Below are positions 1-45,706 of a DNA stretch of 64,000 bases, one piece after another. The stretch lies in assembly GCA_964016885.1 (NCBI GenBank), contig OZ024740.1:181412001-181476000 (forward strand). Reading direction: 5' to 3'. Numbering within the stretch: position 1 is the stretch's first letter; each line of letters opens with the position of its first letter. Position numbers and translations under genes: made by a program. The notes under the pieces were generated by a model, which was not told the origin of the DNA, searched no databases, and worked only from the letters and a program-made list of their open reading frames with translations. This DNA comes from Eledone cirrhosa. Lineage: Eukaryota.

Positions 1-2169
1 TCCTACTCTTATGGCCATGCTGGCAGGATGAATGGGAGAGGAAAGGTTTACTTACCTTCCGGGGTCTTGTGAAGGTCGGGTGGTTCGACCTCCATGGTTT
101 GTGGGGTTTCTTTTGGGAACCCCTTTAATAGTCTTGACGTGGGTTTTACGTTCGGGGTTCCCACATCCCGAGGAAAGCTCTTTCGAATTTCTTTGTATGA
201 AGCGAGCGACATTCGCATCAGAAGCAAATTATCTGGTACGCGAAATGTGCTCGCTTCAAATGTTTCCCCGTCTTTTTCGATGTTTGTGCTTCGTGCTACA
301 TGGGCCATCAATTCCTTGTTGGCCCTTCTGGCAAGCACGAAGTTTTTAATGTTTTGTTGCTCGGGTTTTATTTGTTCGTGTGATTGTGGTGGTGATAGCT
401 TTGTTAGTGTTGTTTCTATTGTGTCTGCGTTTGTTGTGGGTGGGGTGTCTGTAGTTTCTGATGTTTGTGTGTCTATTTGTTCTTGTGTCTGTTTAGCTTG
501 TTTGCGTTTGGGGGATTTTGGTGGTTGTGTTGGTGATGCTGTGGGGAAAATGTTTGTGTGGGTGGTGTGTGTATTTTTTTTTGTGGGGGTGTTTGTGCTT
601 TGTGGATTTCTTTTTTTTTGTGTTTTGTTTTTTGTATTTTGGGGGACTTTGGTTTTCCCTCATCTTCACTGCTGGAGGATGAGGGGTCTGTGGCTGTGAG
701 CGTGTTTGTGTCTGAGTGAGTGTTTATGTTCTTGTTCGTGTGTGTATTTTTGGGGGGGAGGGGGAATGGGAGAGCTTTCCTCGTTTCCCCCCTGGGTGTG
801 CAATTTTGGTGGTTCCATTGTTGACGGTGTTGCTGGTGGTCCTTGTCCCGGCATCGCCAGCAGTGGAATCTTTCGACCCCTTGCGCTTTTCGGCAGTTGA
901 GGGCAGAAGGCTCGCAAGTGTGTCGTTTCCCCACAAAGGAAACAATGCGGCCTTTTGCCCTCAGTCATTATATGCATCACCCTCCCGTTTTGGAGGCGGA
1001 TGTGGTCCGGGATTGCTTTTACGTTTTCGGGTCTGATTTGGAGCAGTATCTCCAGATCAACCCCGGACCAGTCGTCCCTGGCAGTTCTCGTTGCCTCTAC
1101 CGGGACTGTATCCGTTCCTTCCACGATTACGCAACCCAGGAGCCACCACATATCAAGTCCTGGTGGAATCCTGGGAATGCGCACACGTGCTATTCGTTTT
1201 CCCATGTGGGAGGGGTACATTATAACCTTGCTGGTTTTGCAAGGGGTCATTGAATGCTTCACAGCGAGGGCTTCAGACTTGAACAGCACCGAAACGGTGC
1301 CGTATTGCCTGCCCCTCTCTATGAAGTCTGTGTCCTCTCTGATGTATTTCAGTGCGGCTTCTATATCAGCTTGGGCGATTATCGCTGCCCTCTTTGTCTC
1401 TACTGAGATGCATCTGAAATGCACCGTTCTTTTTTCCACTGCCTCAATGGCTTCTGCCGGGACAGTTAAGTTTGCCCAGGTCTGCTCTTGATTTATGATT
1501 TTCCAGGCCTGGGCCAACTTTTCCTCTCTGTTGGTTAAGTCGATGCTGTAGCATGGTCTCCTTTTAGCCGCTGCCACAGCAGCGAAGGTGTTCTTGTTGG
1601 TGTTGTCACTGTTGTTGTTCTTGTTGGTGTTGCTGCTGCTATTGCTGTTGTTGTTCTCCCCTGTGTCGTGGTTACCCTCTGTGCTGTTGGCCTTGTTGGT
1701 GCTGTTGCTGTCGCTACTATTACTCTCTGTGCTGTTCGTTTTGTTGGTGCTCTCGCTATTACCACCTTCTGCGCTGTTCGGCTTGTTGGTGTTGGTGTTG
1801 TCGCTGTTACCACCTTCCGCGCCGCTCGGCCCGTTGGTGCTGGCACTGTCGCTGCTCACATTCGTGCTGGTGGCGCTCCTCGCCTCACCTCTCCTCTCAA
1901 CGCTCAAGTCGCCGTTGCACGACAGCAGACCTGCCTCTAGGGGGCGTGGCTCCTCCATGTTTTTTTGAGAAAAAAATTATTATTTTTTTTCAAAATAAAG
2001 TTCAAATATTTGGGCCAAAAGGCCCAAATATTATGAGTTATTCCTTCACAGGATACAAATTAATGTCTTATAATGCTTCAGCGGTACAAAAAATAAACAA
2101 TTCTCTACAATTAATCCTCAAAAAATTGCTTACTCACGGAGCTTCAAAAAACGTACATCCACTTTCGTC
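1..2169 (-). mobile_element. Tx1/L1-clade non-LTR retrotransposon, family A copy 1 (5' UTR, ORF1 and first 6 codons of ORF2; rest runs off the window)
   Basis: Nearly identical to 5842-8015. ORF2 ATG at 18 (MAIRVG). The 5' end GACGAAAGTGG abuts (AAT)6 at 2170-2187. Confidence 0.93.
666..1958 (-). CDS. ORF1 gag-like nucleic-acid-binding protein, N-terminal 430 aa; true ORF1 probably continues through two homopolymer frameshifts to the stop at 48
   Basis: CCHC knuckle CFLCGETTHLRAFC, TFAAVAA motif, Asn/Ser-rich N-terminus. Position upstream of ORF2. Downstream frames 473-934 and 48-338 resemble the ORF1 C-termini of the other families. Confidence 0.85.
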   Translation of the reverse strand: MEEPRPLEAGLLSCNGDLSVERRGEARSATSTNVSSDSASTNGPSGAEGGNSDNTNTNKPNSAEGGNSESTNKTNSTESNSSDSNSTNKANSTEGNHDTGENNNSNSSSNTNKNNNSDNTNKNTFAAVAAAKRRPCYSIDLTNREEKLAQAWKIINQEQTWANLTVPAEAIEAVEKRTVHFRCISVETKRAAIIAQADIEAALKYIREDTDFIERGRQYGTVSVLFKSEALAVKHSMTPCKTSKVIMYPSHMGKRIARVRIPRIPPGLDMWWLLGCVIVEGTDTVPVEATRTARDDWSGVDLEILLQIRPENVKAIPDHIRLQNGRVMHIMTEGKRPHCFLCGETTHLRAFCPQLPKSARGRKIPLLAMPGQGPPATPSTMEPPKLHTQGGNEESSPIPPPPQKYTHEQEHKHSLRHKHAHSHRPLILQQ

Positions 2170-2187
2170 AATAATAATAATAATAAT
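2170..2187. repeat. (AAT)6 junction/target tract between elements A1 and A2
   Basis: Direct reading. Equivalent tracts at 8016-8042, 14147-14185, 14366-14374 and from 19505. Confidence 0.95.
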
Positions 2188-2439
2188 GATTTCATTTATT
2201 GGCCACAAGGGCCGACATATAGGGGACAACACAATAGACAGGGACAGTGGGGGTTTACATAGAGATCGAGTAAGTATAAATAACAAAAAACAAAATAACA
2301 ATAAAAATACAACAATGAAAGTTCCCCAATAAGAGGGATCACCACCCAGGGTTGACTCAAGCACCCCACCAGTCCTGAGCCACCCGACGCTCCTAGGGCA
2401 CCCGGGAAGGGCACCCCTCTCCTTCTCGAATTCACCAGC

Positions 2440-5400
2440 CTACAGGCGCATGATCAGAGTAGGCCCACTCACGCGGGCCATTCTCGCCACATTCACCCAC
2501 CTTTCAGTAAATGTACTGGGGGGCAGCACTTCTCTCTCCACCCTCACCTTCCTTTCCAAGTGAAACTTGAAGAAGTTGATGAGGGATTGGCCGAAGAGAA
2601 AAGTGTCTGTCTTCAGTCCTTTCAACCTGGTCCACCATGCAACCTCTTTCGCTACTGCCACCAGGCAGAGGAAAATTGCCTGCCCTTCCTGACCAAAAGA
2701 AGGCGGCGGGTCAATCTTCACTATGGACTCGGACGATAGCCGGATCCGTTCTACACGCGACAATAGCTGTTCGACATAACCCCACAAGTCAGCAATGCAC
2801 GGACACTGGACGAGTGCGTGCAGAACGGTTTCGTCGCTCTGCGCGCATCTCGGGCAGGTTCGTCTGACAGCACTTCCGTGCCTGTAGAGTTTATCCCGAA
2901 CCGGCAGCGCCCCCCGGTAGCACTGCCAAGCGAGGGATTTCTGGAAGTTATCCATCGTCCCCGGCTCGAAAGTCCTCCGGAACATACTGGTCAGTTCTAC
3001 TTCGTTGACGCCCAGAGCCTCTCCTAGTACGTCATCGCACTTGCCCTCCACTAATCCTCTATAGAAATCTTGAGTGGAAGTTCCACTGACCGCATTGCCC
3101 ACCTTGCAGAGTGCAGTGAGCGCCTGGCAACATTCCAGATGCCAGTCGCCCAGTCTCGGTCTCTTCTTGACCCAGGACTGCAGCTCAGTCAAAGAGATGA
3201 GCTGCGGAAAGGCCCGTCTAACAAACGGCGACCACACCTGTTCACCGTTTAGGCAAAATATCTGGAGATGTCGCAGCCTCAGCGCATGTCTGCGCATCAT
3301 TAGCCACGGCATGCCCAGCCCTCCACGAAGAGGGTGCTGGCAGCAGATGGACCGCCTCACCAACGGGACCCGTCCCCTCCACAAAAATTTGAAAAGGAGC
3401 CGTTCCAAATTGGCGAGGCGTGGACGGGGGCAAGGCATGACGGTCAGGCGGTAGTAGATGACGGACGCGATGTACGCGTTCGCCACCTCCGCCCGCCCTT
3501 TCAGTGATAGCTTTCTCTCAGCCCATTTCTGGGTGAGGTTGGCTATCCTGCTCGTCACCTCGTCCCAATTCTTATCCACCTGGAGGTCTGGTCCGAACCA
3601 AACCCCGAGCAACTTTACCGGTCCGTCTGTCCAGCGCCCAACGACGCTGTTGGACGGCATGGACTTGCCTCTCCAGGTGCCGAGCTGCAAGCCCACCGAC
3701 TTTTCCGGGTTAAGTTTTGCTCCCGTCAACCTTTCATATTCCTCCAAATGGGTGCGGATCACCTCGATTTCCGAGGTGTCCGACACCATCACGGTGATGT
3801 CGTCCGCATAAGCGGACGCAGCCTTTCTACGTCCCGGTTCGAGCGGGATGCCCTGCAACAACTCCAGCTTCCGCAGTAGAGGCTCAAGAGTCAATACGTA
3901 CAGAAGTGAGGAGAGAGGGCACCCTTGACGGACCGATCGAGAGATCTGAAACGGTTCCGAGAGGTGGCCATTAACTTTGACCACCGAGCAGATGCCGCTG
4001 TACATTGCAGCGATCCAGCTTCTGAAGACGGGGCCGAAGCCAGCCGCCTCGAGGACAGCCTCCAAGTACCGATGGTCGACCCTATCGAATGCTTTCGATT
4101 GATCTAAATTGATCAGAGCCCCACCGAAGCCAGGTTTGCACCCAACCCTCTCTATGATGTATCGCATGAGGTGGAGGTTGTCGTGTATGGACCTGGTCGG
4201 GATTGCGCAAGTTTGCGCCTCCCCAACCAAATCTTTGACGACAAGCGCCAACCTTTTCGCTAACACCTTGGCCAAAATCTTAAACTCTGTGTTGAGCAGG
4301 GTTATGGGCCTGAAATTATCTAGTGTGTCCCTCTTGTTCTCGTCTTTCCTTATCAGCGTCACTACGCCACGGCTCACAGAACTGGGAATGCTCCCGTTCT
4401 GCTGCCAGTTGCAGTAGAGCGCTTCGAGGAGATCGGAGAACAAGTCTGGCATATTTACGTAAAGCTCGTAGGGCAGACCATCCAAACCGGGTGACTTGCG
4501 ACTCGAGCAGCCGACAAGGGCGTCCTGAATTTCGACTGATGTTATCGGCTCTTCGCAGCGCTCAGCGTCGGCCGTCGAGAGGCGTGGCAAGCCGTCGAGG
4601 TAGGGACTGAAGTCCGCCGCCGTCTCCGACTCACCCATCCTCCCGAACAATCGAGCAAAGTGCTGGCGAAAGGCCTCACACATCTGCTTGGAATCGCTCA
4701 GTTCGTGTCCATCTCGATCCGTCAAAGACCGAATTGTGGTTTTGTTTCCACGCTGCGTCTCTGCAAAGCGAGCCCATCGGGCAGCTTTGGTTCCCTCGTT
4801 CCTCAGAGCACGCGCCTTAGCTCTGACAATGCAACCTTCGTGTTTCGCATTGAAGAAATGGTCTAGTGCCATTCTCGCCGCTAGCACGTCTGTTGCAATG
4901 CCACTACAAATAGCCTCGTCTAACTTAGCTATCAGCCCCTCCTCCTTTCTATTTTTCTCTATTGCTACTTCTTTGCTAAATCCTATCGAGGTTGCTCTAA
5001 TCTCTCTTTTGAGTGCCCCCCACCACCTGTTGTTGACAACCCCCCCTGTCAACTTTTGCTTAACTAAGTTGTTGACCCGGTCCCTGTAAGCTTTACGTGC
5101 CGGAAACGACATGTTTAGCTTCCAGTAGCTAGGTCCTAACCTACGTGTCTTATCTAGGTCGACCATACAGATCACAAGCTTGTGATCTGAATAGGCAACC
5201 GTTTTAAAATGTGGACATCCTACACTATTTCTATCTCTTTTCCTAATGAAAATCCTATCTATGTACGATCTAGATGACCCTATGCGATTGGTCCAGGTCC
5301 ATACTGGCGCATTAGGGAAATCTAGTCGGTACCTGTCAGACAGTTGAAACTGGCTGATCAGGTACTTGAGGCTTTTGCACCCCCCGCTCCTATCAGATAC

Positions 5401-5859
5401 TCCCACACAATCCCAGCGTGCTTCTAAGATGCCATTCCAATCCCCTATTAACAGTAAAGGGCGAGACGTAAGCAGAAAGTTTTCCAGGCGCCTAAAGAAG
5501 TCCGGCCGACCGGCCCCAGTAGGGGCGTAGACGGCCACCAGTCTAAAGGCACCACCTTCGCTATTGCTCACGTCCAGGACCACCAACTTTCCGTCAGGAT
5601 CCCGGAAGATTGACCTTACCTCGAGATCCAGACATTTCCTAAACAGCACAGCCACTCCACCTCCCATTCCCGGCCGACTAACAGATGCAAAGATCTGATA
5701 ATCGTCGAAAATCGGCGCCAGTGCGCGTGTGTCGGAAATTCTGGTCTCGCTGATGGCAATTACATCCATTCCTAGTGACCTGAGGTCGTTGAGCAAGTGA
5801 CCTTGCTTCCAGGGCGACCCCAGGCCACGAACATTTAAACTTCCTACTCTTATGGCCAT
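2440..5859 (-). CDS. ORF2 pol protein: AP-like endonuclease + reverse transcriptase + C-terminal CCHC finger (Tx1-like), intact 1139 aa
   Basis: APE motifs SLNVRGL, SETR, GDWN, YIDRIF, SDH. RT motifs KSPGLDG, FRPITLLN, LDQSKAFDRV, RQGCPLS, YADD. C-terminal CPRC..ETVLHALVQC. Confidence 0.97.
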   Translation of the reverse strand: MAIRVGSLNVRGLGSPWKQGHLLNDLRSLGMDVIAISETRISDTRALAPIFDDYQIFASVSRPGMGGGVAVLFRKCLDLEVRSIFRDPDGKLVVLDVSNSEGGAFRLVAVYAPTGAGRPDFFRRLENFLLTSRPLLLIGDWNGILEARWDCVGVSDRSGGCKSLKYLISQFQLSDRYRLDFPNAPVWTWTNRIGSSRSYIDRIFIRKRDRNSVGCPHFKTVAYSDHKLVICMVDLDKTRRLGPSYWKLNMSFPARKAYRDRVNNLVKQKLTGGVVNNRWWGALKREIRATSIGFSKEVAIEKNRKEEGLIAKLDEAICSGIATDVLAARMALDHFFNAKHEGCIVRAKARALRNEGTKAARWARFAETQRGNKTTIRSLTDRDGHELSDSKQMCEAFRQHFARLFGRMGESETAADFSPYLDGLPRLSTADAERCEEPITSVEIQDALVGCSSRKSPGLDGLPYELYVNMPDLFSDLLEALYCNWQQNGSIPSSVSRGVVTLIRKDENKRDTLDNFRPITLLNTEFKILAKVLAKRLALVVKDLVGEAQTCAIPTRSIHDNLHLMRYIIERVGCKPGFGGALINLDQSKAFDRVDHRYLEAVLEAAGFGPVFRSWIAAMYSGICSVVKVNGHLSEPFQISRSVRQGCPLSSLLYVLTLEPLLRKLELLQGIPLEPGRRKAASAYADDITVMVSDTSEIEVIRTHLEEYERLTGAKLNPEKSVGLQLGTWRGKSMPSNSVVGRWTDGPVKLLGVWFGPDLQVDKNWDEVTSRIANLTQKWAERKLSLKGRAEVANAYIASVIYYRLTVMPCPRPRLANLERLLFKFLWRGRVPLVRRSICCQHPLRGGLGMPWLMMRRHALRLRHLQIFCLNGEQVWSPFVRRAFPQLISLTELQSWVKKRPRLGDWHLECCQALTALCKVGNAVSGTSTQDFYRGLVEGKCDDVLGEALGVNEVELTSMFRRTFEPGTMDNFQKSLAWQCYRGALPVRDKLYRHGSAVRRTCPRCAQSDETVLHALVQCPCIADLWGYVEQLLSRVERIRLSSESIVKIDPPPSFGQEGQAIFLCLVAVAKEVAWWTRLKGLKTDTFLFGQSLINFFKFHLERKVRVEREVLPPSTFTERWVNVARMARVSGPTLIMRL

Positions 5860-5888
5860 GCTGGCAGGATGAATGGGAGAGGAAAGGT

Positions 5889-7804
5889 TTACTTACCTTC
5901 TGGGGTCTTGTGAAGGTCGGGTGGTTCGACCTCCATGGTTTGTGGGGTTTCTTTTGGGAACCCCTTTAATAGTCTTGAAGTGGGTTTTACGTTAGGGGTT
6001 CCCACATCCCGAGGAAAGCTCTTTCGAATTTCTATGTATGAAGCGAGCGACATTCGCATCAGAAGCAAATTATCTGGTACGCGAAATGTGCTCGCTTCAA
6101 ATGTTTCCCCCTCTTTTTCGATGTTTGTGCTTCGTGTTCCATGGGCCATCAATTCCTTGTTGGCCCTTCTGGCAAGCACGAAGTTTTTAATGTTTTGTTG
6201 CTCGGGTTTTATTTGTTCGTGTGATTGTGGTGGTGATAGCTTTGTTAGTGTTGTTTCTATTGTGTCTGCGTTTGTTGTGGGTGGGGTGTCTGTAGTTTCT
6301 GATGTTTGTGTGTCTATTTGTTCTTGTGTCTGTTTAGCTTGTTTGCGTTTGGGGGATTTTGGTGGTTGTGTTGGTGATGCTGTGGGGAAAATGTTTGTGT
6401 GGGTGGTGTGTGTATTTTTTTTTGTGGGGGTGTTTGTGCTTTGTGGATTTCTTTTTTTTTTTGTGTTTTGTTTTTTGTATTTTGGGGGACTTTGGTTTTC
6501 CCTCATCTTCACTGCTGGAGGATGAGGGGTCTGTGGCTGTGAGCGTGTTTGTGTCTGAGTGAGTGTTTATGTTCTTGCTCGTGTGTGTATTTTTTTTGGG
6601 GGGGAGGAGGAATGGGAGAGCTTTCCTCGTTTCCCCCCTGGGTGTGCAATTTTGATGGTTCCATTGTTGACGGTGTTGCTGGTGGTCCTTGTCCCAGCGT
6701 CGCCAGCAGTGGAATCTTTCGACCCCTTGCGCTTTTCGGCAGTTGAGGGCAGAAGGCTCGCAAGTGTGTCGTTTCCCCACAAAGGAAACAATGCGGCCTT
6801 TTGCCCTCAGTCATTATATGCAACACCCTCCCGTTTTGGAGGCGGATGTGGTCTGGGATTGCTTTTACGTTTTCGGGTTTGATTTGGAGAAGTATCTCCA
6901 GATCAACTCCGGACCAGTCGTCCCTGGCAGTTCTCGTTGCCTCTACCGGGACTGTATCCGTTCCTTCCACGATTACGCAACCCAGGAGCCACCACATATC
7001 AAGTCCTGGTGGAATCCTGGGAATGGGCACACGTGCTATTCGTTTTCCCATGTGGGAGGGGTACATTATGACCTTGCTGGTTTTGCAAGGGGTCATTGAA
7101 TGCTTCACAGCGAGGGCTTCAGACTTGAACAGCACCGAAACGGTGCCGTATTGCCAGCCCCTCTCTATGAAGTCTGTGTCCTCTCTGATGTATTTCAGTG
7201 CGGCTTCTATATCAGCTTGGGCGATTATCGCTGCCCTCTTTGTCTCTACTGAGATGCATCTGAAATGCACCGTTCTTTTTTCCACTGCCTCAATGGCTTC
7301 TGCCGGGACAGTTAAGTTTGCCCAGGTCTGCTCTTGATTTATGATTTTCCAGGCTTGGGCCAACTTTTCCTCTCTGTTGGTTAAGTCGATGCTCTAGCAT
7401 GGTCTCCTTTTAGCCGCTGCCACAGCAGCGAAGGTGTTCTTGTTGGTGTTGTCACTGTTGTTGTTCTTGTTGGTGTTGCTGCTGCTATTGCTGTTGTTGT
7501 TCTCCCCTGTGTCGTGGTTACCCTCTGTGCTGTTGGCCTTGTTGGTGCTGTTGCTGTCGCTACTATTACCCTCTGTGCTGTTCGTTTTGTTGGTGTTCTC
7601 GCTATTACCACCTTCTGCGCTGTTCGGCTTGTTGGTGTTGATGTTGTCGCTGTTACCACCTTCCGCACCGCTCGGCCCGTTGGTGCGGGCACTGTCGCTG
7701 CTCACACTCGTGCTGGTGGCGCTTCTCGCCCCACCTCTCCTCTCAACGCCCATGTCGCCGTCGCACGACAGCAGACCCGCCTCTAGGGGGCGTGGCTCCG
7801 CCAT
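5889..7804 (-). pseudogene. ORF1 of family A copy 2, disrupted
   Basis: TAC>TAG nonsense change at 7394-7396 relative to copy 1, plus frameshifts in homopolymers at ~6590 and ~6452-6462. CCHC knuckle retained. Confidence 0.88.
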
Positions 7805-8287
7805 GTTTTTTTGAGAAAAAAAATTATTATTTTTCCAAAATAAAGTTCAAATATTTGGGCCAAAAGGCCCAAATATTATGAGTTATTCCTTCACAGGATA
7901 CAAATGAATGTCTTATAATGCTTCAGCGGTACAAAAAAATAAACAATTCTCCACAATTAATCCTCAAAAAATTGCTTCCTCACGGAGCTTCAAAAAACGT
8001 ACATCCACTTTCGTCAATAATAATAATAATAATAATAATAATGTTTTCTTTATTAACCACAAGGGTTTACATAAAGTAGACATTAAGGACAGTACAGGAT
8101 AATACGGGACGGTACAAATGGGCATTTCTGCGTGTAAAAAAAACAGAGGAGGAAAATAAAATAACAAAGAAAAATTCCCCAATAGGGGGGAGACTTCCGA
8201 GGGACATTTGTGGAGAAAGCCCATTAAAAGACCACAGTGGCCCTGACCACCAGGGCAAGTGCCCTTTCCCAATTTTCCACCTTTAAT

Positions 8288-11200
8288 TTACAGACACATA
8301 CTCAGAGAAGGCCCATTCATTCGGGCCATACTTGTTTCTCTCACCCATCTTTCAACAAAATGCTGGGAAGAGAGCACTTCCCTCTCTACCCTGATTTTCC
8401 TTTTCACATGAAATTTGAAAAAGTTAATCAGGGTATCACCGAAGAGGTAAGTGCTCGTCTTCAGCCCTTTCAAACGTGTCCACCATACTATCTATTTCGC
8501 CATGGCCACCAGACAGATAAAAACTGCCTGCCCTTCCCGGCTAAAGGAAGAGTGCGGGACAATCCTCACGAAGGACTCAGCTGATAGCTGGATCCGTCCT
8601 ACACGTGACAGCAGGTGTTCGACATAAACCCACAAGTCAGCAATGCTTGGACACTGGACGAGTGCGTGCAGGACGGTTTCGTCGCCCTGTGCGCATCTCG
8701 GACATGCCCGGCTGACGGCACCTCCATGCCTGTAAAGTTTATCCCGAACTGGCAAAGCTCCTCGGTTTGCACTGCCAGGCCAGGGATTTCTGGAAGTTGT
8801 CCATAGGCCCTGGCCCGAAAGTCCTTCCGAAGAGATTGGCTAGTTGATTTTCGTCGACGCCTAGAGTTTCTCCAAGTACGTCGTCGCTCTTCCCCTCCAC
8901 TAATCCCCTATAGAACGCCAAGGTGGCGATTCCACCGATCACATTGCCCGATTGGTCGAGGGCTGTGAGCGCCTGAAGATATTCCAGTCTCCAAGCGCTC
9001 CCTCTCGGTCTTCGCTTGACCCAGGACTGCAGCTCCGTCAAGGAGACGAGCTGGGGAAAAACGTGTCTAGCAAACGGCGACCACACCTGATCACCGTCGA
9101 GGAAGAGGTGGAGATGTCGTAGCCTGAGCGCGTGTCTGCGCATCATCAGCCACGGCATGCCCAGCCCTCAACGTAGAGGGTGTTGACAGCAGATGGACCG
9201 CCTGACCATCGGAGCGCGTCCCTTCCACAAGAAGCGAAAGAGCAAACGCTCCAGCGCAGTCAGGCGAGGCTTAGGACAAGGTACGACAGTCAGGCGGTAG
9301 CAGATATACGGACGCGATGTACGCGTTAGCCACCTCCAATCGACCTTTCACGGATAGCTTCCTCTCGGCCCATTTCTGGGTGAGAGAAGCCACCCTGCTC
9401 GTCACCTCGTCCAAGTTTTTGTCCGTCTGGAGGTCTGGACCGAACCAGACCCCTAGCAATTTAACCGGTCCGTCCGTCCAGCGCCCGACGACGCTGTTGG
9501 ACGGCATGGACCTGCCTCTCCAGGTGCCGAGCTGCAGGCCCACTGACTTTTCCTGGTTGATCATTGCTCCTGTCACCGCTTCGTATTCTCTTAGTGTAGT
9601 GCCGATCGCCTCGATGTTTTTGGCGTTCGACACCACTACGGTGACATCGTCGGCATATGCTGACACGGATCTTCCGCATCCTAGTTCACGCGGGACCCCC
9701 CTCAACGTCTCCAGTTTGTGCAGTAATGGCTCGAAAGTCAATACGTACAATAGGGACGAGAGGGGACATCCTTGGCGGACCGAGCGCATGATGTTGAACG
9801 GTTCCGAAAGGTGACCGTTCACTCTCACTACAGAGCAGATGTTGCTGTGAATGGCAGCGATCCACCCTCTGAAGACGGGCCCAAAGCCAGCCGCCCTCAG
9901 GACTGCCGCTAGGTAACGATGGTCGACCCTATCGAAGGCTTTCGACTGATCTAAATTGATCAAAGACCCACCCGTGCCAGGTTCCCTAGCTACCCTCTCT
10001 ACGATGTATCGCATGAGGTGGAGGTTGTCGTGGATGGATCTGTCGGGAATGGCGCATGTCTGTGCCTCTCCCACCAGACCACCAACGACAAGCGCCAACC
10101 TCTTTGCTAGCACCTTGGCCAAAATCTTGAACTCTGTGTTTAGCAGAGTTATGGGCCTAAAATTATCTATGTTATCCCCCTTGTTCGGATCCTTTCTCAG
10201 CAGCGCCACCGCTCCTCGGTTCTCAGAGCTGGGAATTCTCGCGTTCTGTTGCCAGTTGCAGTAGACGTCCGCCAAGAGGCCTCCGAATAAGTTTGGCATT
10301 TGTAGGTAAAGTTCACAGGGCAGACCATCCAAACCAGGCGATTTACCCCTTGTGCAACTAGTCATTGCATCCCGTACTTCAGCGGTTGTTATCGGCTTTT
10401 CGCAACACTCCGCCTCAGTGGCCGAAAGCCGCGGCAGTCCGTCGAGGTGGACAATAAAGTCCATCCCTCGATCCGGCCCGCCACTGCCCCCGAACAGTTG
10501 AGCGAAGTGTCGCTGAAAAGCTTCACACATTTTCCCGGGATCGAGTAGCATGCGCCCGTCGTGGTCCACCAAAGACAGGATCGTGGCTTTGTTGCCACGA
10601 CGCGCCTCCGCCACTCGGGCCCATTGAACGGCTTTCGTCCCCTCGTGTCTGAGAGCACGCACCCTAGCTCTGACACCGCAGCCTTCGTGCTTTGCATTGA
10701 AGAATTGGTCAAGGGCCAATTTCGCCGCAAGTACGTCGGTCGCGATGCCTTTGCTAAGCGCCTCATCTAATTTTCTAACTAATTCTCCCTCTGCTCTATT
10801 TTTCTCTATTGCTAAAGCCTTACTAAACCTAACGGACTCTATTCTAATTGCTCTTTTCAGAGCAAACCACCACTTGTTGTTGACGATGGCCCCCGTCAAC
10901 GCCCGCTTAACTAGTTCGCTAATCCGGTCTCTGTAGGCCTTGCGCGCTGGTAAGGACGCGTTTAGCTTCCAGTAGCCGGGTCCTCGTCTATGAAGCCTAT
11001 CTAAGTCAAGCACACAGATCACGAATTTGTGGTCCGTGTAGCTGACTATCTTGAATTGTGGACAGCCTATGCTAGACCTATCTATTTCCCTACAAAATAC
11101 TCTATCTAGATATGATCTGGATGACCCTATACGATTTGTCCAAGTCCACATTGGTACATTCGGGAAATCCATTCGGTACCTGTCAGACAGTTCAAAACGT

Positions 11201-11709
11201 CTGAGCATGTTGGTGAGACTCTTGCACCCTCCTTCCCTATCCACTAATCCCACACAATCCCAGCGTGCATCTAAGATCCCGTTCCAGTCGCCCACTAACA
11301 CTAAAGAGCGGGACGTTCCAAGAAAGGTCTCCAGACGCCGGAAGAAATCAGGCCGCCCTGCTCCTGTCGGGGCATAGACGGCCACTAACCTGAAAGCTTG
11401 CCCGTCTCCGCTGGTTACGTCCAGCACCACCAACTTACCTTCTGGGTCCAGGAAGATGGCCCGTATGGCAAGATCCAAACCTCTCCGAAAAAGCACAGCA
11501 ACTCCTCCCCCCGATCCCGGACGGCTGGGAGATGCGTACACATCGTAGCCGCCGAAGATCGGTGCGAAAGCCTGTGCTTCGGAGATTCTGGTCTCGTTGA
11601 TGGCCACTACCTCTATGTTTAGTGACCTGAGGTCGTTGAGCAGGTGGCCCTGCTTCCATGACGACCCCAAGCCACGCGCATTTATGCTGCCTATTCTGAG
11701 TGAGGTCAT
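8288..11709 (-). pseudogene. ORF2 (APE-RT-CCHC) of family B; open for 812 aa, then frameshifted
   Basis: ORF 9271-11709 has GDWN, TDH, QGCPLS and YADD. Fragments 8739-9158, 8492-8755 and 8288-8473 match the C-terminus of the family A ORF2. Confidence 0.92.
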
Positions 11710-11744
11710 GTTTAAAATAGAGTGGAAAAGATGGGAAAGACCAC

Positions 11745-13938
11745 TTACCTTACTTCTCGTAGGGGATGGACGGTTTTTCCATCCTTTTCACTGCTTGTGG
11801 CCTCCTCAGGAAGGATGTCCTTATAAATCCTCCTGGAGAGTGCTTGTCGGAAGTCTCCGATGTGTTTGGGGAATTTTTTTTTTTAATTTTTTTTAGTGTC
11901 ACGTACGTATTCTGTGTGATGCGAGTGATTTGTATGTGTGGAGGTGGTGTGAATTTTGGGGTTGTTGTGTAGTCTTTTTCTGTGATGCTGGTGTTGTGTT
12001 GGATGTAGTGTAATAATTGCTTGTTGTTCAAATTTAATTGTTTCTACTTTAGGCATAAGGCCAGCAATTACCCAGTGCATTACTGGTACTTTATTTTATC
12101 GACCCCGTAAGGATGAAAGGCAAAGTCAACCTCGGCGGGATTTGAACTCAGATCATAAAGGGACGTAACTATGCTGGAAAGCATGGCGTCAAAACCTCTA
12201 CCGATACTGCCAATCCACCGCTTGTTGTTCAAATTTAATGCTGTGTAGTGTGTATCGTTTTGGTTGTTTTGTTTTGTTTGCGTTTGTTGTGGGTTTGTTT
12301 CTGTTTCGCATTTTGGTGACTTTTGTGGTGTAGGTGATGGTGGTGTTGGGGTTAATGATGGTGATGGTGTTGGTGTTTGGGTTGCTGGTGTGGATGGTGG
12401 CATATCTGTCCTAACTTTTTTGTTTCTTAGTTTATTTGTTTCCCTCTGTATTTTGTTTTTGGAGGGGGAAGGAAGAGAATTTTTTCTTTTTTGGTTTCTT
12501 TTTTTTTTCCGGATATCGTTTCCCACTCCTCGTCGTCACAATCTGTCTCCAGTTGTGATACGCCGGGGAGTGGAAAATCCTCCACAGGCGTTAGTTTTGG
12601 TTGTGGCGTGGTGGATGGTGTAGGCGCTGGTGCTAGTTCTGAAGCGTTGGGTGGTGGTGGTGTTGGTTTTGCTGGTGGTGGTGGTGGTGTTGGTTTTGCT
12701 ACTGTTGCTGGGGTTGTTGCTGTTATAGTTGTTTCTGTTGTTGCTGCTACAGTTGTTGCTGCCATCTCTGCTACTGGTGGTGTTGATGGTTGTGTCACTG
12801 GGGTGGGTAGGAGAGGTGGCCTCAACCTTTTAGCCTGAGGGCAGAAAGCCCTTAGGTGGTTTCCTTCACCACAAACGACACACCTAGGTCTTCTGCCCTC
12901 AACAATTACCGTGAGGTGGCTGCCGTCAGTGAGGTCTATTACCTCTGGGATCTCCTCAATGCTTTTTTGGTCCGCTTGGATCAGGAGCTCCATCCCAGAT
13001 CCGGACCAGTTCTCCTGCTTTTCTTTTGCTATTGCTATTAATTTTGTGTTGGCTTCGATGCCGGCGAGGACGGCCGCTATTAGCCAGGGAATTTCGATGG
13101 CCGGTGGAACGTGGGTCACCCTGATCTTTACGAGTCTCTGGCCACAATAGCTTGGGACGAGTGTGATGTCGTCACTTCTTAATGGGGCCATGGAGTGTTC
13201 TCTAGCCTCCTCTGGTGTTTCAAAGAACACGTCCACGGTTCCATACTTTTGCCCACGTCTGATGTTGGTTTTTCTTGCCCACACATGTCCCAAAGCTTTT
13301 TGGATTTGGGACTCGGATGCCCGTTTCACTCGGCGCGATTTTACATTTATTGTTCGATACGACACGGTGCATAGGCGCCGATGCTCCATTTTATTAGGTG
13401 TGGGGGGGGGGCTGACCCTGTACCCATCTTTCTTTACCATTTGTTTGGCATTCTCTAAATCCTCCTGAGTTACCGTAAATGCTTCGAACTGCTTTGCTAC
13501 TCTGGCGAAACTGAGGGTGGTTTTTATAATGTCACTGTTGTTGTTGTTGCTATCGTTATTTGTGTTAATATTAATTTTAGTTTCAGTTGTGGTGGTGGTG
13601 ACGTCAGTCGTCTTTGGTGGGGAAGAGTCCATTTTACTTGATTTCATTTCGACATCACGAGTTAATTTATTTTTTTCTTCTTTTGTTTCTGTTGTTGCGG
13701 TGGTGGTGGGGGTGGGGGTTGTCGCGGTCGTGGTGGTGGTGGTGGAGGCTTTAACACCTGCAGTCATTGGTAATGGCGGGAAATGAATGTCTGCCTGAGA
13801 CAAATTTAAAATATTGCTACTGCTTATATTTGTTGTAGTGTTGGCAAACGTAGTCACATTTACAATGGTGGTGTCGGTGTGAGGAGTTAATTTGTGAGGA
13901 AGGCTTTCAGTTGCTTGGTGCAGAGGTGAATTAGCCAT
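11745..13938 (-). pseudogene. ORF1 of family B (starts MANSPL), interrupted by a poly-A frameshift and a SINE
   Basis: CVVCGEGNHLRAFC knuckle, LSFARVA motif, GQKYGTVDV similar to GRQYGTVSV of family A. Confidence 0.87.
12039..12219 (-). mobile_element. tRNA-derived SINE (family S1) with 20-bp target-site duplication
   Basis: B-box-like GAGTTCAAATCC and central GCCTTTCATCCTTACGGGGTCGATAAAATAAAGTACCAG. TSD GCTTGTTGTTCAAATTTAAT at 12019-12038 and 12220-12239. At least 5 copies in the window. Confidence 0.9.
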
Positions 13939-14185
13939 TTTTTTCAAAGAAATTTTTTGATAATAATAAAAGTTTAAATTTTGGGCACAAGGCCCCAATC
14001 TTTTTGGGTGTCCTTTTCGGAAAACAATGTATGTGCGCTTATATATGGTTAACAATAAAAATTTTCCATAAATGGCAATTTTTAACAAACGGAAATAACA
14101 AACCTTTGCGGAGCTCACGATGATACGATTTACTACGTAGGTCGCCAATAATAATAATAATAATAATAATAATATTAATAATAAT

Positions 14186-14361
14186 TGTTTCTACTTTAGG
14201 CACAAGGCCAGCAAATATCCAGTAGATTACTGGTAATTTATTTTATCGACGCCGTAAGGATGAAAGGCAAAGTTAACCTCGACGGGATTTGAACTCAGAC
14301 TGTAAAGAGACGTAACTGTGCTAGAAAGCATGGCGTCCGACCCGCTACCGATACTGCCAAT
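14186..14361 (-). mobile_element. SINE S1 copy inside the AAT junction between elements B and C
   Basis: Colinear with 12039-12219. AAT tracts on both sides. Confidence 0.88.
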
Positions 14362-14616
14362 TGCGAATAATAATACTTTCTTTATTAACCACAAGGGTTT
14401 ACATAAAGTAGACATTAAGGACAGTACAGGACAATACAGGACGTTACAAATAGGCATTTCAGCGTGTAAAAAACAAAAACAGAGGGTGTAATAGAAATAA
14501 CAATGAAAAATTCGCCAATAGGGGAGACTTCCGAGGGACATTTGTGGAGAGAGGCCATTAAAAGGCCACAGTGACCCTGACCACCAGAGCAAGTGCCCTC
14601 TCCCAGTTTTCCACCT

Positions 14617-17169
14617 TTAATTTACAGACACACTCAGATTAGGCCCATTCACTCGGGCCATTCTTGCTTCTCTCACCCATCTTTCAACAAAATGCTGGGA
14701 AGAGAGCACTTCCCTCTCTACCCTGATTTTCCTTTTCAAATGAAATTTGAAAAAGTTAATCAGGGCATCACCGATGAGGTAAGTGCTCGTCTTCAGCCCT
14801 TTCAAACGTGTCCACCATACTATCTCTATCGCCATGGCCACCAGACAGATAACAACTGCCTGCCCTTCCCGGCTAAAGGAAGAGGGCGGGAAAATCCTCA
14901 CGAAGGACTCAACTGATATCCGGATCCATCCTACACGCGACAGCAGGTGTTCGACATAAACACACAAGTCAGCAATTCTCGGACACTGGACGAGTGCGTG
15001 CAGGACGGCTTCGTCACCCTGCGAGCATCTCGGACATGCCCGGGTAACGGCACCTCCATGCCTGTAGAGTTTATCCCGAACTGGAAGTTGTCCATAGGCC
15101 TCAGCCCGAAAGTTCTTCCGAAGAGATTGGCTAGTTGATTTTCGTCGAGGCTTAGAGCTTCCTCAAGTACGTCGTCGCTCTTCCCCTCCACTAATCCTCT
15201 ATAGAACAACGAGGTGGAGCTTCCACCGATCACATTGCCCGATTGGTCGAGTGCTGTGAGCGCCTGAAGTCATTCCAATCTCCAAGCGCTCCCTCTCGGT
15301 CTTCGCTTGACCCAGGACTGCAGCTGCGTCAAGAAAACGAGCTGGGGAAAGACGCATCTAGCAAACGGCGACCACATGTGATCACCGTCGAGGAAGAGGT
15401 GGAGATGTAGCCTGAGCGTGTGTCTGCGCATCATCAGCCACGGCATTCCCAGCCCTCCACGTAGCGGGTGTTGACAACAGATGGACCGCATGACCATCGG
15501 AGCGCATCCCTTCCACAAAAAGCGAAAGAGCAAACGCTCCAGCGCAGTCAGGCGGGGCTTAGGACAAGGTACGACGGACAGAGGGTAGCAGATGACGGAC
15601 GTGATGTACGCGTTAGCAACCCCCGCTCGACCCTCAGGGATAGTATCCTCTCAGCCCATTTCTGGGTGAGAGAAGCCACCCGGCTCGTCACCTCGTCCCA
15701 GTTTTTGTCCGTCTGGAGGTCCGGACCGAAACAGATCCCTAGCAATTTAACCGGTCCGTCCGTCCAGCGTCCGACAACGCTATTGGACGGCATGGACCTG
15801 CCTCCCCAGGTGCCGAGCTGCAGGCCCACTGACTTTTCCTGGTTGATCATTGCTCCTGTCACCGCTTCGTATTCTCTTAGTGTAGTGCCGATCGCCTCGG
15901 TGTGTTTGGCGTTCGACACCACTACGGTGACAACGTCCGCATATGCTGACACGGATCTTCCGCATCCTAGTTCGCGCGGGACGCCCCTCAGCGTCTCCAG
16001 TTTGTGCAGTAATGTCTCGAGAGTCAATACGTACAAGAGGGACGAGAGGGGACATCCATGGCGGACCGAGCGCATAATGTTGAACGGTTGCGAAAGGTGA
16101 ACGTTCACTCTCACCACAGAGCAGATGTCGCTGTGCATGGCAGCGATCCAGCCTCTGAAGACGCGCCCAAAGCCAGCCGCCCTCAGGACTGGCGCTAGGT
16201 AACGAAGGTAGACCCTATCGAAAGCTTTCAACTAATCTAAATTGCTCATGGACTCACCGGTACCAGGTTCCCTTGCTACCCTCTCTACGATGTATCGCAT
16301 GAGGTGGAGGTTGTCGTTGATGGATCTGTCGGGAATGACGCATGTCTGCGCCTCTCCCACCAGACCACCAACGACAAGCGCCAACCTCTTTGGTAGCACC
16401 TTGGCCAAAATCTTGAACTCTGTGTTTAGCAGGGTTATGGGCCTGAAATTATCTATGTTATTCCCCTTGTTCGGATCCTTTCGATGCAGCGCCACCGCTT
16501 CTCGAATAACATAGCTGGGAATTCTCCAATTCTGTTGCCAGTTGCAGTAGACGTCCGCCAAGAGGCCTCCGAACAAGTCTGGTATTTGTACGTAAAGTTC
16601 ATAAGGCAGGCCATACAAACCAGGCGATATATCCCTTGTGCGCCAATCATTGCCTCCCGTACTTCAGCGACTGTTATCGGCTTTTCGCAACACTCCGCCT
16701 CAATGGCCGAGAGCCGCGGCACTCCGTCGATGTAGATACTAAAGTTCATCCCTCGATCCGGCCCACCGATGCCCCCGAACAGCTGTGCATATTGTCGCTG
16801 AAAAGCTTCACACACTTGCCCGGGATCGAGTAGCATGCGCCCGTCGTGGTCCACCAAAACCAGATCGTGGCCTTGTTGCCACGACGCGCCCACGCCACTT
16901 GGGCCCATTGAACGGCTTCGTCCACTCGTGTCTGAGAGCATGCACCCTAGCTCTGACATTGCAGCCTTCGTGCTTTGCATTGAAGAATATGTCAAGGGCC
17001 AGTTTCGCCGCAAGTACGTCGGTCGCGATGCCTTTGCTAAGGAGATTCTGGTCTCGCTGATGGCCACTACGTCTATGTTTAGTGACTTGAGGTTGTTGAG
17101 CAGGTGGCTCTGCTTCCATGACGACCCCAAGCCACGCGCAGTTATGCTGCCCATTCTGAATGGGGTCAT
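14617..17169 (-). pseudogene. ORF2 of family C, multiple lesions and a ~0.82-kb internal deletion of most of the endonuclease
   Basis: RT fragments FRPITLLNTEFKILAK and HGCPLSSLLY. Junction at 17040/17041 joins sequences that lie at ~10757 and ~11581 in family B. Confidence 0.9.
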
Positions 17170-17203
17170 GTTGAAATGGAGGGGAAAAGATGGGAAAGAC
17201 CAC

Positions 17204-19283
17204 TTACCTTACTTTTTGTAGAGGAAGGATGGTTTCTCCATCACTTTTCACTTGATCGTCTGGTGAATGGACCGTTGAATCTTCCCTTCGGCTGGTCGTC
17301 GGCTCTTCTATGAGTATATCCGAATATACTCTCCGGTTGAGAGTCGCTCCTAGATCTCTGAAATCACCAACTGTGTTGGGGAATTTCGTTTTAACGTTTA
17401 TGTATTGTTTCTGTGCTATTCTTACTAGTCTTATGTTCGTTGGTGTTTTGATTGGTGCTGGTATTATGTAGTCGTGCTGTGAAATGTCTGGGTGTTCAAT
17501 TATGTAAGTCATTAGTTTCTTGTTGTGTGTATTTATTGCCATGCATTTGTTTTTCTGGGGCTGGGGTGTGGTTCTGGTATTTTATCTTCGTTGTTGCTGG
17601 GTGTGTGTGTTTTGTTGTTGTGTTTCCGATGTTAGTACTTGTGGTGGTGGTGGTGTTGAAGGTGTTGTTGTTGTTGGCCGTGGGGTTGTCGCTGGTGGTG
17701 ATGGTGGTGCTAGTGTGGGTTGTGATGTTGTTGGTGGTGTTGCTGCTGTAAGGGTCTTTGCAGTAGCCTTTACCCTTTTTTCATTTCTTTCCTCCCTTTT
17801 CGAAGGCGACGATGCGGTGCTTCTGCGTTTGTGCCTTCTTACGACCTTTTGCCATCCCTCTCCCACCTCACACTCCATGTCTGATTCTGTGATGTCGGGG
17901 AGGGGTACCAGCTCCACTCTTTCACTTGTTGTTGGTGATGTTTGTAATGGAGTCTCTGTTGCAGCTGCAGTTGGTATTACTGATGTTGTTGTTAATACTT
18001 CCACTACTGCTGCTGTTCTTGATTTCCGTGGCGTGGGTATGGGTTCCACGGACCTATCGTTCCTGGTTGCCGCTTGTCCTGTTGCTGGTAGCAGTGGAGC
18101 CGGTTTCGGAACGATGGGGGTTTTCTCCTTTCTCAGGGTCTTCTCATTGCTGAAGACCCTGAGGTGAGTCTTCGATCCACAGCGAAAGCATTTCGGGCGT
18201 TTGCCCTCAACACTTATGGGCAGTTGAGTGCCGTCATCGAAGTCTATCACATCCGGGATAGCTTCGATGCACTCCCGGTTGCCTTGGATTAACATCTTAA
18301 TGGAGGTGCCGACCCAATCTTCTCTTGCTTTTTTCTGTACTTGCAGTACACGTGGGTCAGTTTGACCATCACAATTTTTTGCCCGCAGTAGGAGGGCACC
18401 AACACCATTTCCTCGCTCCTTAGGGTCACTAAGGATTGATCCTTTGCCTCCTAGGGTGTGGCAAAAAGCACGTCTATGGTGACATATTTCTTGCCTCGGG
18501 TGATATGCGTTTTTCGCTGCCACACAGAACCTAAGGCATTTTGTATTTGAGCCTCTGTGGCTCCTTCAGCCCTACGGGATTTTGTGCTTACTGTACGGTA
18601 CGTGACCGTATAGTGCTGTTGGGTTTCGAAAAATGTTTCGGCTGCCTTGCTCGGTGTCCGGTTTTCGTCACCATCTTCTTTGCTTCCTGTAATTCCTCAT
18701 TTGTTATAAGGATGGTTTCCAGGTTCTTTGCGATACCTGCAAACGAGATTGGTTTTTCTTTCTTGTTGTTGTTGTTGTTGTTGTTGTCGTCAGAGCTGCT
18801 GTTACTTTTGTTGTTGCTGCTGGTACTACGACTGCCGCCACCGCTGTTGCTGTGGTTGTTGTCGTTGTTGCTGCAGCTGCCGTTGTTGTTGCCGCTGCTG
18901 CTGGTGGTGTTGTTTATGCTGCTGCTGATGCTGTTGCGGCTGCTACTATTATTTTCCTTGTCACTGTTGATGCTGTTATTACGGCTGCTACTGCTATTAT
19001 TCATGACGTCAGACGAATGAAATGGCTTTCCGTATTTACCGCACACATTATTCGTCGTTGTCGTCGTCGGGGGGAAATGTTCCACAGTATGCACGTTCTA
19101 TTGGTGAAAGCTACCAGAAACTATTTTTTTCTTTTTCTTTAATGGCGTCGCTTGCGAAAGACGCGACACCACATTTAGAGAAGGGAGGGAGAGAGACAAT
19201 CTTCTCTCTGATGTAATGACGATTGAGGAAGAAGAAGACGGAAAGAGCGGGAGTGACTTATGAAAATTCTTTTTTGTAGCCAT
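17204..19283 (-). pseudogene. ORF1 of family C, disrupted
   Basis: EGKRPKCFRCGSKTHLR knuckle remnant and ISFAGIA motif. In-frame stop at 17582-17584 precedes the C-terminal domain 17204-17542. Confidence 0.85.
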
Positions 19284-19639
19284 GTTTTTTTTTTTGACGG
19301 TTTAAAATGTATATTGGGCACAACACCCCCAATAAGCGGTTATTTAACACCGACGGGCCAAATAACCTGCAGAAAGACCCCTCTCACGAGGAGGAGGGTG
19401 TCATTATCTACAATTTGGTTCAAGTTTTAAACAATTTACGATTGTTATAGCGGTTACAAATTACTATACCTTACAGAGCCGAGCCTCCGTCAACCATGGC
19501 ATTCAATAATAATAACAATAATAATAATAATACTGATACTACTATTACTACTACATGTGCTGTTTCTGGTGCCGCTGCTGTTGCTACTACTGCTGCTGCT
19601 GTTGCAGTTATTCTGCTACTATTACAACTAATAATAATG

Positions 19640-20136: not shown

Positions 20137-20478
20137 ATCTGAAAACCCGTGTTGAAACAGTAATTGTTACACTCTAGGAGGGTCGTGCTGCCAATAAAAA
20201 CACGCACCGGTTAGTTTTCACATCAATTTATCATACATTTCTAGCTGGTTGCTTGGTTCGGTAATCGGATGGTTGTTTATATATTGTCAAAGCTCTTTCG
20301 TTACACATTTTGTGACCTCCTCAGTGACTGGGTTTTTATTTTGTCACCCTTCTTTGTTCTGTCCTACACCAACTCCTTGTATGTAGAATAGAACAAAGGA
20401 GAGACACAAAATAAGAACCCAGTCACTGAGGTCACATAATGTGTGGCAAAAGAGGTTTAACAATATATAAACAACCCA
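20137..20478. mobile_element. Penelope-like pseudo-LTR fragment with inverted duplication and a degenerate hammerhead (20286-20328, -)
   Basis: 20270-20348 is inverted at ~20403-20477. Similar to 23757-24112. Motif GTCA CTGAGGA ..stem.. GAAAGAGCTT TGAC. Confidence 0.65.
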
Positions 20479-21750: not shown

Positions 21751-22669
21751 ATCTCTCTCTCTCCCTCTCTTCTTCTTCTTCACTGTGTTTCACTCTGTGC
21801 CTCACTCGCAGTAATTTTAACTCCTAATTTTTATCCACCAGTTATTTTAATTCGTTAAAGCTGTTTGTGTTATTTAATTTCGTCAGTTGATTTTCTATAT
21901 TTTTATATCTTTTTTGCCTCACCTTATTATATTTACAAAATTCTTCTGTCAATTGGTTATTCATTTATTATTGTTATTGTTTTCGTTGTTTTTCATTTCC
22001 TTCATTATAGCAAAAATGACAATTCTTTGATGATAGCAACCAGCAACAGAAAAACAAAACAAAATGCCATTAATGAAATAATATAAACTAAAACATATAT
22101 TGGCAGAGAAATCAGCTTGTTAAATGGCTTACAATTAATTTTTCACTAAGCCTATATTAGTGCTGCAATATCACCAAATATACAGCCGAACTAAAATTTA
22201 GTATTACATTTGCCAAGAAAATCGGATAATCAATGTGACATAAGAACCTCTTGTTCATAAAAGCTGATGTCGTATTTCAACACTTAGTAAAAACAATTAC
22301 AATGAGTTGCACAGCAAACTCATTCATTGCTAAGTTTCTCTATATCTTTGTCTCTATAATATTTCCTCGCTTTACATTTTTTGTAAACTGATATCCGTTG
22401 GTGTCTGTGGTATATTTTTCACTTGTTTTATGAACAGAACTGCATTCACATTGAACTATAATCTCAGTAGCTAAATATTCCTCAAACAGTTCTACAGTAA
22501 ACGTAATTTTCTGAATCAAAGTAACTCACTGTCGGATAAGACTGGGCGTTTGAATTACATTTACTATTACATTGATAGCATGCTAGAGATTCAAACCAAC
22601 AAATATCGCTGTCATTTGATATCCTAATCCGAGTCTGTCTATATTCTCTATGCATATATATATATACAT

Positions 22670-23619
<950 letters not shown>

Positions 23620-40194: not shown

Positions 40195-40502
40195 ATATAT
40201 GCATCGAGTTGAAACTTTGGAAATCCCTCTAACAAATTTTAATATTGTGTTCGTTGTTACACTGGTTGCTCACGATGTGCCACTATTAACAAGTTTTTTC
40301 ATCTGTAACGCTGGGTTCAGCAATACCCACTAAAGGACATTTGTTAGAGGGATTTCCAAAGTTCCAACTCGATGCATATATATATATGCATCGAGTTGGA
40401 ACTTTGGAAATCACGCTAACATATTTCCTTTAGAGGGTATTGCTGAACCCAGCGTTACAGAGTGAATAGTGGCACATCGTGTAACAACGGAAACAATATT
40501 AA
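40195..40502. repeat. Nested inverted repeats (palindrome centred ~40383)
   Basis: 40240-40382 mirrors 40384-40502, and 40195-40237 repeats the centre-proximal arm. Confidence 0.8.
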
Positions 40503-45594: not shown

Positions 45595-45706
45595 CAATCT
45601 CTCTCTCTATATATATATATGTGTGTCTGATGGTAGCTATGATGTTTCCATAGGCGTTATGCCGGTTGATCACTCTATGTTCTTACAGAGCAGAGTGTGA
45701 TATAAT

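Follow-up and report, generated by a model that had tools for sequence, protein, structure and literature searches.

Much ORF1 protein and little ORF2 protein come from one LINE RNA; how this is brought about is a long-standing question, the usual answer being weak reinitiation, and splicing is viewed as harmful to L1. The window analysed here is a stretch of 64,000 nucleotides of Eledone cirrhosa DNA. Each of the LINE copies found in it bears at the end of ORF1 the sequence AG/GTAAGT (the slash marks the putative exon-intron boundary), which is the U1-binding consensus of a splice donor. What this donor-like motif does on the RNA of a retrotransposon was addressed by comparing it between families, by following its variation among copies, and by considering the RNA structure in which it may lie.

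Bases 1-19,500 of the window are taken up by four LINE copies on the minus strand, arranged head to tail and named A1, A2, B and C (features in Table 1); A1 runs beyond the end of the window. A1 and A2 are 97.8% identical. B and C have a common junction, ORF2 and 3′ UTR (89-92% identity; 93 of the 112 columns of the junction alignment are identical), and different ORF1s. The proteins specified by the latter are about 50% identical or less (window 11790-13940 versus 17250-19300), the point of exchange lying near 11788-11800, just upstream of the helix arm described below. In A1 and A2, the frame of ORF1 is lost through shifts at homopolymer runs (590-760 and 6430-6600); these differ between the two copies and are either assembly errors or real slippage. 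The domains of ORF2 correspond to PF03372, PF00078 and PF13966; its reverse transcriptase is nearer to human L1 ORF2p (E value 1e-56) than to R2 (3e-22), and human L1 ORF2p is also the nearest solved structure to the A2 ORF2. A separate upstream ORF1 bears a zinc knuckle (C-x2-C-x4-H-x4-C) that is invariant in all four aligned ORF1s, and PF00098 was matched on the ORF1 of relatives. An (ATT)n tract adjoins all four LINE 5′ ends and all three visible 3′ ends, a microsatellite target preference of the Tx1 type as seen at this one locus. Judged by these sequence features, the elements are L1-group non-LTR retrotransposons of Tx1-like habits; the tree of reverse transcriptases contained unnamed relatives and no named Tx1 reference element.

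Table 1. Coordinates, within the window, of the LINE features discussed in the text
Feature	Position	Strand	Remarks
Donor of A1	50..57	-	same motif as A2
Donor of A2	5891..5898	-	GT at 5896-5895; ORF1 stop TAA at 5891-5889
Donor of B	11743..11750	-	ORF1 stop at putative intron +2..+4; -2 either A or C among family members
Donor of C	17202..17209	-	junction lineage shared with B, ORF1 different
Inter-ORF spacer of A2	5860..5888	-	pyrimidine-rich; TCCCAT at 5878-5873; within predicted 5′ helix arm
ORF2 of A2	2440..5859	-	intact, 1139 aa; AP endonuclease, reverse transcriptase, zf-RVT; putative intron
Candidate acceptor of A, TAG/G	2440..2442	-	putative; coincides with the ORF2 stop
Second candidate acceptor of A, TAG/G	2393..2395	-	putative; 16 nt beyond the pairing partner of donor -1
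Candidate acceptor of B, CAG/G	8243..8245	-	putative; 45 nt past the stop; in C at 14579-14577; weak pyrimidine tract
ACGCAG of B	8128..8133	-	acceptor proposed in the first-pass annotation; CTG in C
A2 helix, 5′ arm	5842..5906	-	predicted; ORF1 end, donor, spacer, ORF2 start
A2 helix, 3′ arm	2399..2464	-	predicted; ORF2 end, stop, first 41 nt of 3′ UTR; best of 235 windows
B helix, 5′ arm	11695..11749	-	predicted; donor -1..+7 paired
B helix, 3′ arm	8254..8306	-	predicted; around ORF2 stop (8290-8288); best of 235 windows
B outer helix, 5′ arm	11847..11894	-	predicted; A-rich ORF1 sequence
B outer helix, 3′ arm	8153..8200	-	predicted; 3′ UTR; overlaps the U-rich stretch taken for a polypyrimidine tract
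C helix, 5′ arm	17140..17208	-	predicted
C helix, 3′ arm	14588..14653	-	predicted; around ORF2 stop (14624-14622)
AATAAA of A2	2195..2200	-	3′ end; a few bases ahead of the (ATT)n tract
AATAAA of B	8054-8049	-	3′ end
(ATT)n target tracts	2170-2187, 8016-8042, 14147-14173, 19517-19531	.	separate the copies; the first lies between A1 and A2

On the minus strand, AGGTAAGT is present at the ORF1 end of the four LINE copies (4/4), at exactly the four places reported by the first-pass annotation. It has seven matches in the window against 2.4 expected; seven matches were reached in 2 of 100 shuffles. The annotation assigned the motif to three families, and it does occur in A, B and C; given the near-identity of A1 and A2 and the common junction, ORF2 and 3′ UTR of B and C, however, the window holds only two independent junction lineages (A and B/C). 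The reading frames are as described, GAA G/GT AAG TAA in A and GTA AG/G TAA in B/C, those of B and C being homologous. The description of the consensus as perfect holds for G/GTAAGT, which is invariant, but not for the A at -2, which is frequently C among B/C-type copies. Similarly, the distance from GT to the ORF2 ATG, thought to be fixed, is 37, 37, 39 and 38 nt in A1, A2, B and C but 13 nt in the related family D (see below), and the TCCCAT found in the spacer of the window copies is absent from D. By a crude score of U1 pairing, not to be taken for a splice model, the donor came first in A, third in B, second in C and fourth in D. The match to the U1 consensus, together with its conservation, is what a real intron would be expected to show.

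Relatives were sought in other collections. In prokaryote assemblies 47 loci were found, 41 of which were tandem arrays of eukaryote-type LINEs in a single bin labelled as bacterial; these arrays are probably animal host DNA. These arrays (L002-L040, L043 and L044 of G001) hold ∼70 near-intact LINEs, head to tail with a period of 6.4-6.9 kb, on some 18 contigs; intact LINEs seldom occur as pure tandem arrays, an arrangement that recalls telomeres or satellites. The metagenome scan yielded a single unrelated and broken LINE (L001, 26%), and the viral contigs searched gave no match. In the main family of the arrays, D, ORF2 is 41% identical to that of A and the junction reads GAG TAA G/GTAAGT, followed by seven further bases and the ATG, so that the motif is wholly non-coding. 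The 8-mer AG/GTAAGT was present in all 56 distinct D ORF1 ends, with +7 and +8 varying beside it, and the exact junction pattern had 63 matches in its assembly compared with 0 for the reversed control. Such retention at 41% ORF2 identity indicates that the motif is under selection, and the earlier proposal that the constraint acts on the RNA rather than on the protein is supported by its persistence in D where it encodes nothing. In addition, the ORF1 stop codon occupies three registers about the motif (+6..+8 in A, +2..+4 in B/C and -4..-2 in D), and the motif is therefore no by-product of the stop codon; from the same positions it follows that ORF1 would remain whole, or almost whole, if splicing took place. 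Conservation did not extend to all relatives: while D has the motif, family E (L033; 40% identical to A and 48% to D) has CT/GTAATG in its place, and the more distant L041, L051 and L053 likewise lack a junction donor. A quick tree placed A/B and D on opposite sides of the deepest split of the clade and E on the side of D; to judge from this, the donor was either ancestral and lost in E, or gained twice. D-type ORF1s have near-identical C-termini and divergent N-termini, which parallels the difference between the ORF1s of B and C; the ORF1 C-termini looked at for 120 of 370 matches were D-like and uninformative. On the strength of these comparisons the donor is regarded as a real, selected RNA signal, its function as a splice site being putative.

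Variation among B/C-type copies was followed in 519 contig records aligned on the B junction (11670-11810), taken from four of six public sequencing runs whose library type is unrecorded. No variant reached 3% at any position from -1 to +6 of the donor. At -2, in contrast, C made up 22% of the summed depth in run X1 and 73% in run X4, a synonymous change in an Arg codon. Since +2..+4 is the stop codon in B/C, invariance there proves little, and the arm at 11720-11749 was about as invariant as the donor itself. Runs X5 and X6 (depth 2-10, near-identical pieces) were uninformative on other species. No joint was present among the 519 records, and no spliced joint among the 15 joints listed of about 3180 in the public-run contigs. 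A single X4 contig bridges the A donor, and is unspliced. Another X4 contig, over the ORF1 end of A (5911-6461), ends 14 nt before the donor; this stop was not used as evidence because contig depth is no guide to the ranking of the parts of a gene. Record 16 of X4 (469 nt, depth 3.1) departs from B exactly at 11749, the last exon base; it is a low-depth record, one contig of 12, with its remaining 382 letters unseen, and serves as a lead only. Loose ends at 11712-11716 come from other subfamilies with the ORF2 start of B and different pyrimidine-rich spacers; in the 14 of 52 loose ends listed, the 30 letters shown contain no TCCCAT.

The pyrimidine-rich spacer is predicted to form one arm of a long-range helix with the region of the ORF2 stop. 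In B, the inverted arms are 11713-11749 and 8254-8290, and in E they lie around the start and end of ORF2; TCCCAT is paired within the predicted helix, and TGCC stands on the partner strand in each of A, B, C and D. When duplex energies in a fixed window were compared with 200 shuffles, z-scores of -3.7 (A), -6.5 (B), -3.5 (C) and -4.6 (E) were obtained. Families D and F were not significant in this assay (D ranging from -0.7 to +1.9 in five subfamilies), in the case of D because the window clipped the arm, which a sliding scan locates at stop-77. When the 5′ arm was slid along 177-265 windows, the best-pairing window fell on the ORF2 stop in families A, B, C, D (at stop-77) and E; in the same kind of scan the ORF2-stop region of the outgroup F was not the best partner. 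The 5′ arms of A, B/C and D each pair best with their own 3′ arm, while in the fixed-window matrix that of E pairs equally well with the 3′ arm of C. Two two-sided changes were found among 58 pairs in nine rows of D (one of the ten rows was left out for an indel).

The predicted helix accounts for part of the donor. Changes at -1, +1 and +5, which are G-C paired in most families, mostly cost 3-7 kcal/mol, whereas transitions at +2, +3 and +4 left the predicted duplex unchanged or shifted it by -3.0 to +0.9 kcal/mol. None of the latter transitions was seen in D, where these positions are non-coding, nor at ≥3% in the B/C-type contigs, and +2 of the A donor is a synonymous position. As modelled, the helix leaves the T, A and A at +2..+4 of the donor unexplained. 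The cost of opening the donor went from 4.6 to 5.5 kcal/mol in A, from 6.2 to 9.8 in B, from 7.5 to 8.1 in C and from 8.6 to 5.7 in D; the modelled helix does not clearly hide the donor any more than local folding does, and on these energies a restraining role of the helix is the weakest step of the reading that follows.

The reading tentatively favoured, at somewhat under an even chance, is that the donor is bound by U1 and used at low frequency to splice out ORF2, the helix keeping this in check. What is directly observed is a conserved motif that keeps to the ORF1 stop, and two arms that are complementary; to this the reading adds that U1 would bind AG/GTAAGT at the ORF1 end as a 5′ splice site, that the whole of ORF2 (3.4 kb) would be removed at a low rate to give a message for the ORF1 protein alone, that the acceptor would lie at or beyond the ORF2 stop and differ from family to family, and that the junction-to-stop helix, if it folds in cells, would hold splicing down so that full-length RNA survives. 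This reading is supported by the occurrence of the same 8-mer in A, B/C and D across 41% ORF2 identity, by the retention of +2..+4 although the helix is indifferent to them, and by the helix z-scores, the position of the best window, the pairing of each arm with its own partner and the two-sided changes in D. It is weakened by the lack of a conserved acceptor and of any spliced retrocopy found, by family E, which has the helix without a junction donor, and by the invariance of the B/C arm, which is about that of the donor while the unpaired -2 base varies. A further weakness is that ORF1, as in L1, precedes ORF2 on the RNA and is closed by a stop of its own, so that its production does not depend on splicing as that of Copia Gag does.

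Candidates for a branch point, a pyrimidine tract and a YAG acceptor differ between families and none is common to all; across A, B/C and D, neither the place nor the sequence of an acceptor is kept. The acceptor proposed earlier for B does end in ACGCAG at 8128, and C does have CTG there, but much of the U-rich tract before it is predicted to be paired with ORF1 (8153-8200 with 11847-11894). For A, said to show none, it is correct that no AG follows its U-rich tract, but YAG/G candidates are present at 2440 and 2393; splicing to the first would end ORF1 as E-G-W-stop with the same number of codons. The TAG/G of A is TAA in B/C, and the TAG stop of D is TCG in 5 of 46 copies. In the 3′ region of D nearly all AGs are invariant, so invariance picks out no acceptor there. 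Spliced retrocopies were sought among 56 D copies and none was found (0/56).

An alternative, fairly unlikely in itself though not far behind the favoured reading, is that U1 binds without splicing, either sustaining transcription or suppressing poly(A) signals in the A-rich ORF1 end or at the 3′ end, the helix releasing U1 once the 3′ end has been made. This would account for a conserved donor without a conserved acceptor or spliced copies. Sequences of the type A[AT]TAAA do lie in ORF1 upstream of the donor (A, -354, -332 and -111; B, -178; C, -368; D, -411 and farther), and in every family a donor stands ∼200-430 nt before the terminal AATAAA, whether via the helix or in line. In HIV-1, an upstream poly(A) site is suppressed by a downstream donor. 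In the Arabidopsis element EVD, U1 plays such a second role, according to the excerpted text of PMC5580714 (published systems are here described from excerpts of the papers cited). The protection from premature polyadenylation suggested by the first-pass annotation nevertheless finds nothing to protect in ORF2, where canonical hexamers are absent from all five families A to E (with ∼0.7-1.9 to be expected in A, D and E, not a significant depletion); E has an ORF1 hexamer at -150 but no junction donor; and the opening energies provide no clear off-switch. Escape from HUSH, also considered as a role for the donor, was rejected since that escape is independent of a 5′ splice site in the portion of PMC8770142 available.

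That the motif is instead part of the helix, or a protein site at its base governing ORF2 translation or RNP assembly, with a likeness to a donor that is inherited rather than functional, is judged distinctly unlikely. The G-C pairing of -1, +1 and +5 in most families, where changes cost up to 7 kcal/mol, would fit such a role, as would the TGCC on the partner strand in A, B, C and D, the ORF2 AUG lying within the predicted helix, and a run of 14 bases common to B and D (AGTAAGGTAAGTGG), which exceeds the need of a splice site. SART1, moreover, requires structure near the ORF2 start (PMC5972666, in part). However, the helix fails to account for +2..+4, E has the helix without the motif, the spacing to the AUG is 13 nt in one family and 37-39 nt in the others, and TCCCAT is the sense of 18S helix 26 rather than its complement UGGGA, while the TGGGA of D varies among copies. 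The grounds for a role in ORF2 reinitiation, another suggestion of the annotation, are removed by the same lack of conservation of the ATG spacing and TCCCAT. SART1, L1 and the calicivirus TURBS resemble the window LINEs in having a bicistronic RNA, a short spacer and structure near the ORF2 start, and TURBS needs UGGGA (excerpts of PMC5972666); the window LINEs differ from TURBS in having no overlapping stop and start, no conserved UGGGA upstream and a pairing partner 3.4 kb away. Reinitiation of the TURBS type was rejected, TCCCAT being of the opposite sense, the TGGGA of D variable, and none present near the B/C stop.

Chance or neutral inheritance is very improbable. A stray AG/GTAAGT, itself judged to be a chance match, does occur inside the ORF2 of B (11433-11440), and just three junction lineages have the motif while one close sister lacks it; but the exact 8-mer is kept at 41% protein identity amid different spacers and stop registers, and base composition alone would place G/GTAAGT no more than 45 nt from the ATG with a probability of 0.002-0.004 in each family. 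Removal of an intron of 52-53 nt in the spacer, fusing ORF1 to ORF2 through the in-frame YAGs at +53 (A and B) or +52 (C), is scarcely credible and was rejected, since the D ORF1 stop precedes the donor and makes fusion impossible and no short joint was present among the 519 records, added to which the nearest CAG of A (+36) is out of frame, the in-frame product of A would probably lose the hydrophobic start of the first strand of the endonuclease, and the ORF2 ATG is kept.

The favoured reading, the low-level removal of ORF2 from a U1-bound donor, takes on a wider aspect from a second donor after the ORF2 stop. In all 46 copies of D examined, GT(A/G)AGT lies 15 nt past the stop, or over it in five of them (L008:9483-9488), alternating between the two U1-compatible forms. 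In E, CAG/GTAAGT lies 41 nt past the stop and is followed by a long pyrimidine tract and, ∼145 nt on, by TAG/G (L033:5503-5646); this donor and textbook acceptor constitute a candidate 3′ UTR intron in a LINE. The second donors of D and E suggest that the clade keeps intron-like signals, and U1-type sites appear, from these sequences, to recur at the base of the ORF2 loop. It is possible, if on the unlikely side, that the whole clade has a switch composed of a donor after each stop (that of ORF1 and, in some families, that of ORF2) and an end-to-end RNA zipper. If true, such a switch would decide between an ORF1-only RNA, an RNA with a spliced 3′ UTR and an unspliced genomic RNA, the reverse transcriptase gene being a looped-out intron. 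A donor that survives at 41% protein identity, keeps to the ORF1 stop and lies within a predicted end-to-end helix would point to a LINE clade that relies on U1 or the spliceosome. The open-licence PMC and bioRxiv literature, as far as its excerpted text goes, contained no account of such a junction donor in a LINE.

By analogy, the junction donor and helix would work like two known systems while belonging to neither. In Copia elements, including EVD, a conserved U1 site splices a Gag-only RNA and blocks early termination, unspliced RNA being dominant in EVD (PMC5580714, in part). The shGAG of EVD thus shares with the window LINEs a U1-type donor that is conserved and lies close to where the structural gene ends. 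EVD, however, is an LTR element with one fused frame, in which a short intron makes the Gag stop and triggers early termination (same excerpt), while the window LINEs have their own ORF1 stop, a putative intron consisting of all of ORF2 (3.4 kb), a retained 3′ end and a predicted helix; a structural-gene stop made by splicing is not found in them, the ORF1 stop of D preceding the donor. In the pregenomic RNA of DHBV, sequences near the donor and the acceptor pair and limit splicing; here, as in the LINEs, complementary sequences on a reverse-transcribed RNA would guard against excess splicing, but DHBV is a virus in which the pairing was shown by experiment, whereas in the LINEs the pairing is predicted and the acceptor a candidate (PMC3356268, in part). 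Human L1 RNA, also of the L1 group, has donors that function, and its spliced RNAs are rarely copied back (PMC2896524, in part). Those donors, which give rise to SpORF2 and SpIREs, lie in the 5′ UTR and remove the promoter or ORF1, producing harmful dead ends, while the window LINEs have theirs at the ORF1 stop and retain it from one family to another (excerpts of PMC2896524 and PMC5860796). The introns of TART lie in antisense RNA (PMC1636488, in part). Kibi, Koshi and crocodilian Tx1 (PMC4494074) and the L1-Tx1 elements of Octopus vulgaris (PMC13282606) resemble the window LINEs in their two ORFs, AP endonuclease, reverse transcriptase, C-terminal zinc motif and insertion into simple repeats, but (ATT)n differs from the targets given for them. 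The available passages of these two accounts describe no junction donor or end-to-end pairing, and 'splic' occurs 0 times in PMC13282606.

Other features of the window include an abundant SINE, with one copy inside the ORF1 of B (12035-12221, flanked on both sides by a direct repeat), another between B and C (14175-14361) and further copies at 25950, 54090 and 57240; the SINE-to-LINE depth ratio was far higher in X4 than in X1. The AT-rich part contains long fold-back elements, probably MITEs, at 20271-20476, 22665-23565, 40298-40466, 45700-45938, 48004-48178 and 53767-53967, and a tandem duplication of ∼490-600 bases with 96% identity is present at 52307-53580.
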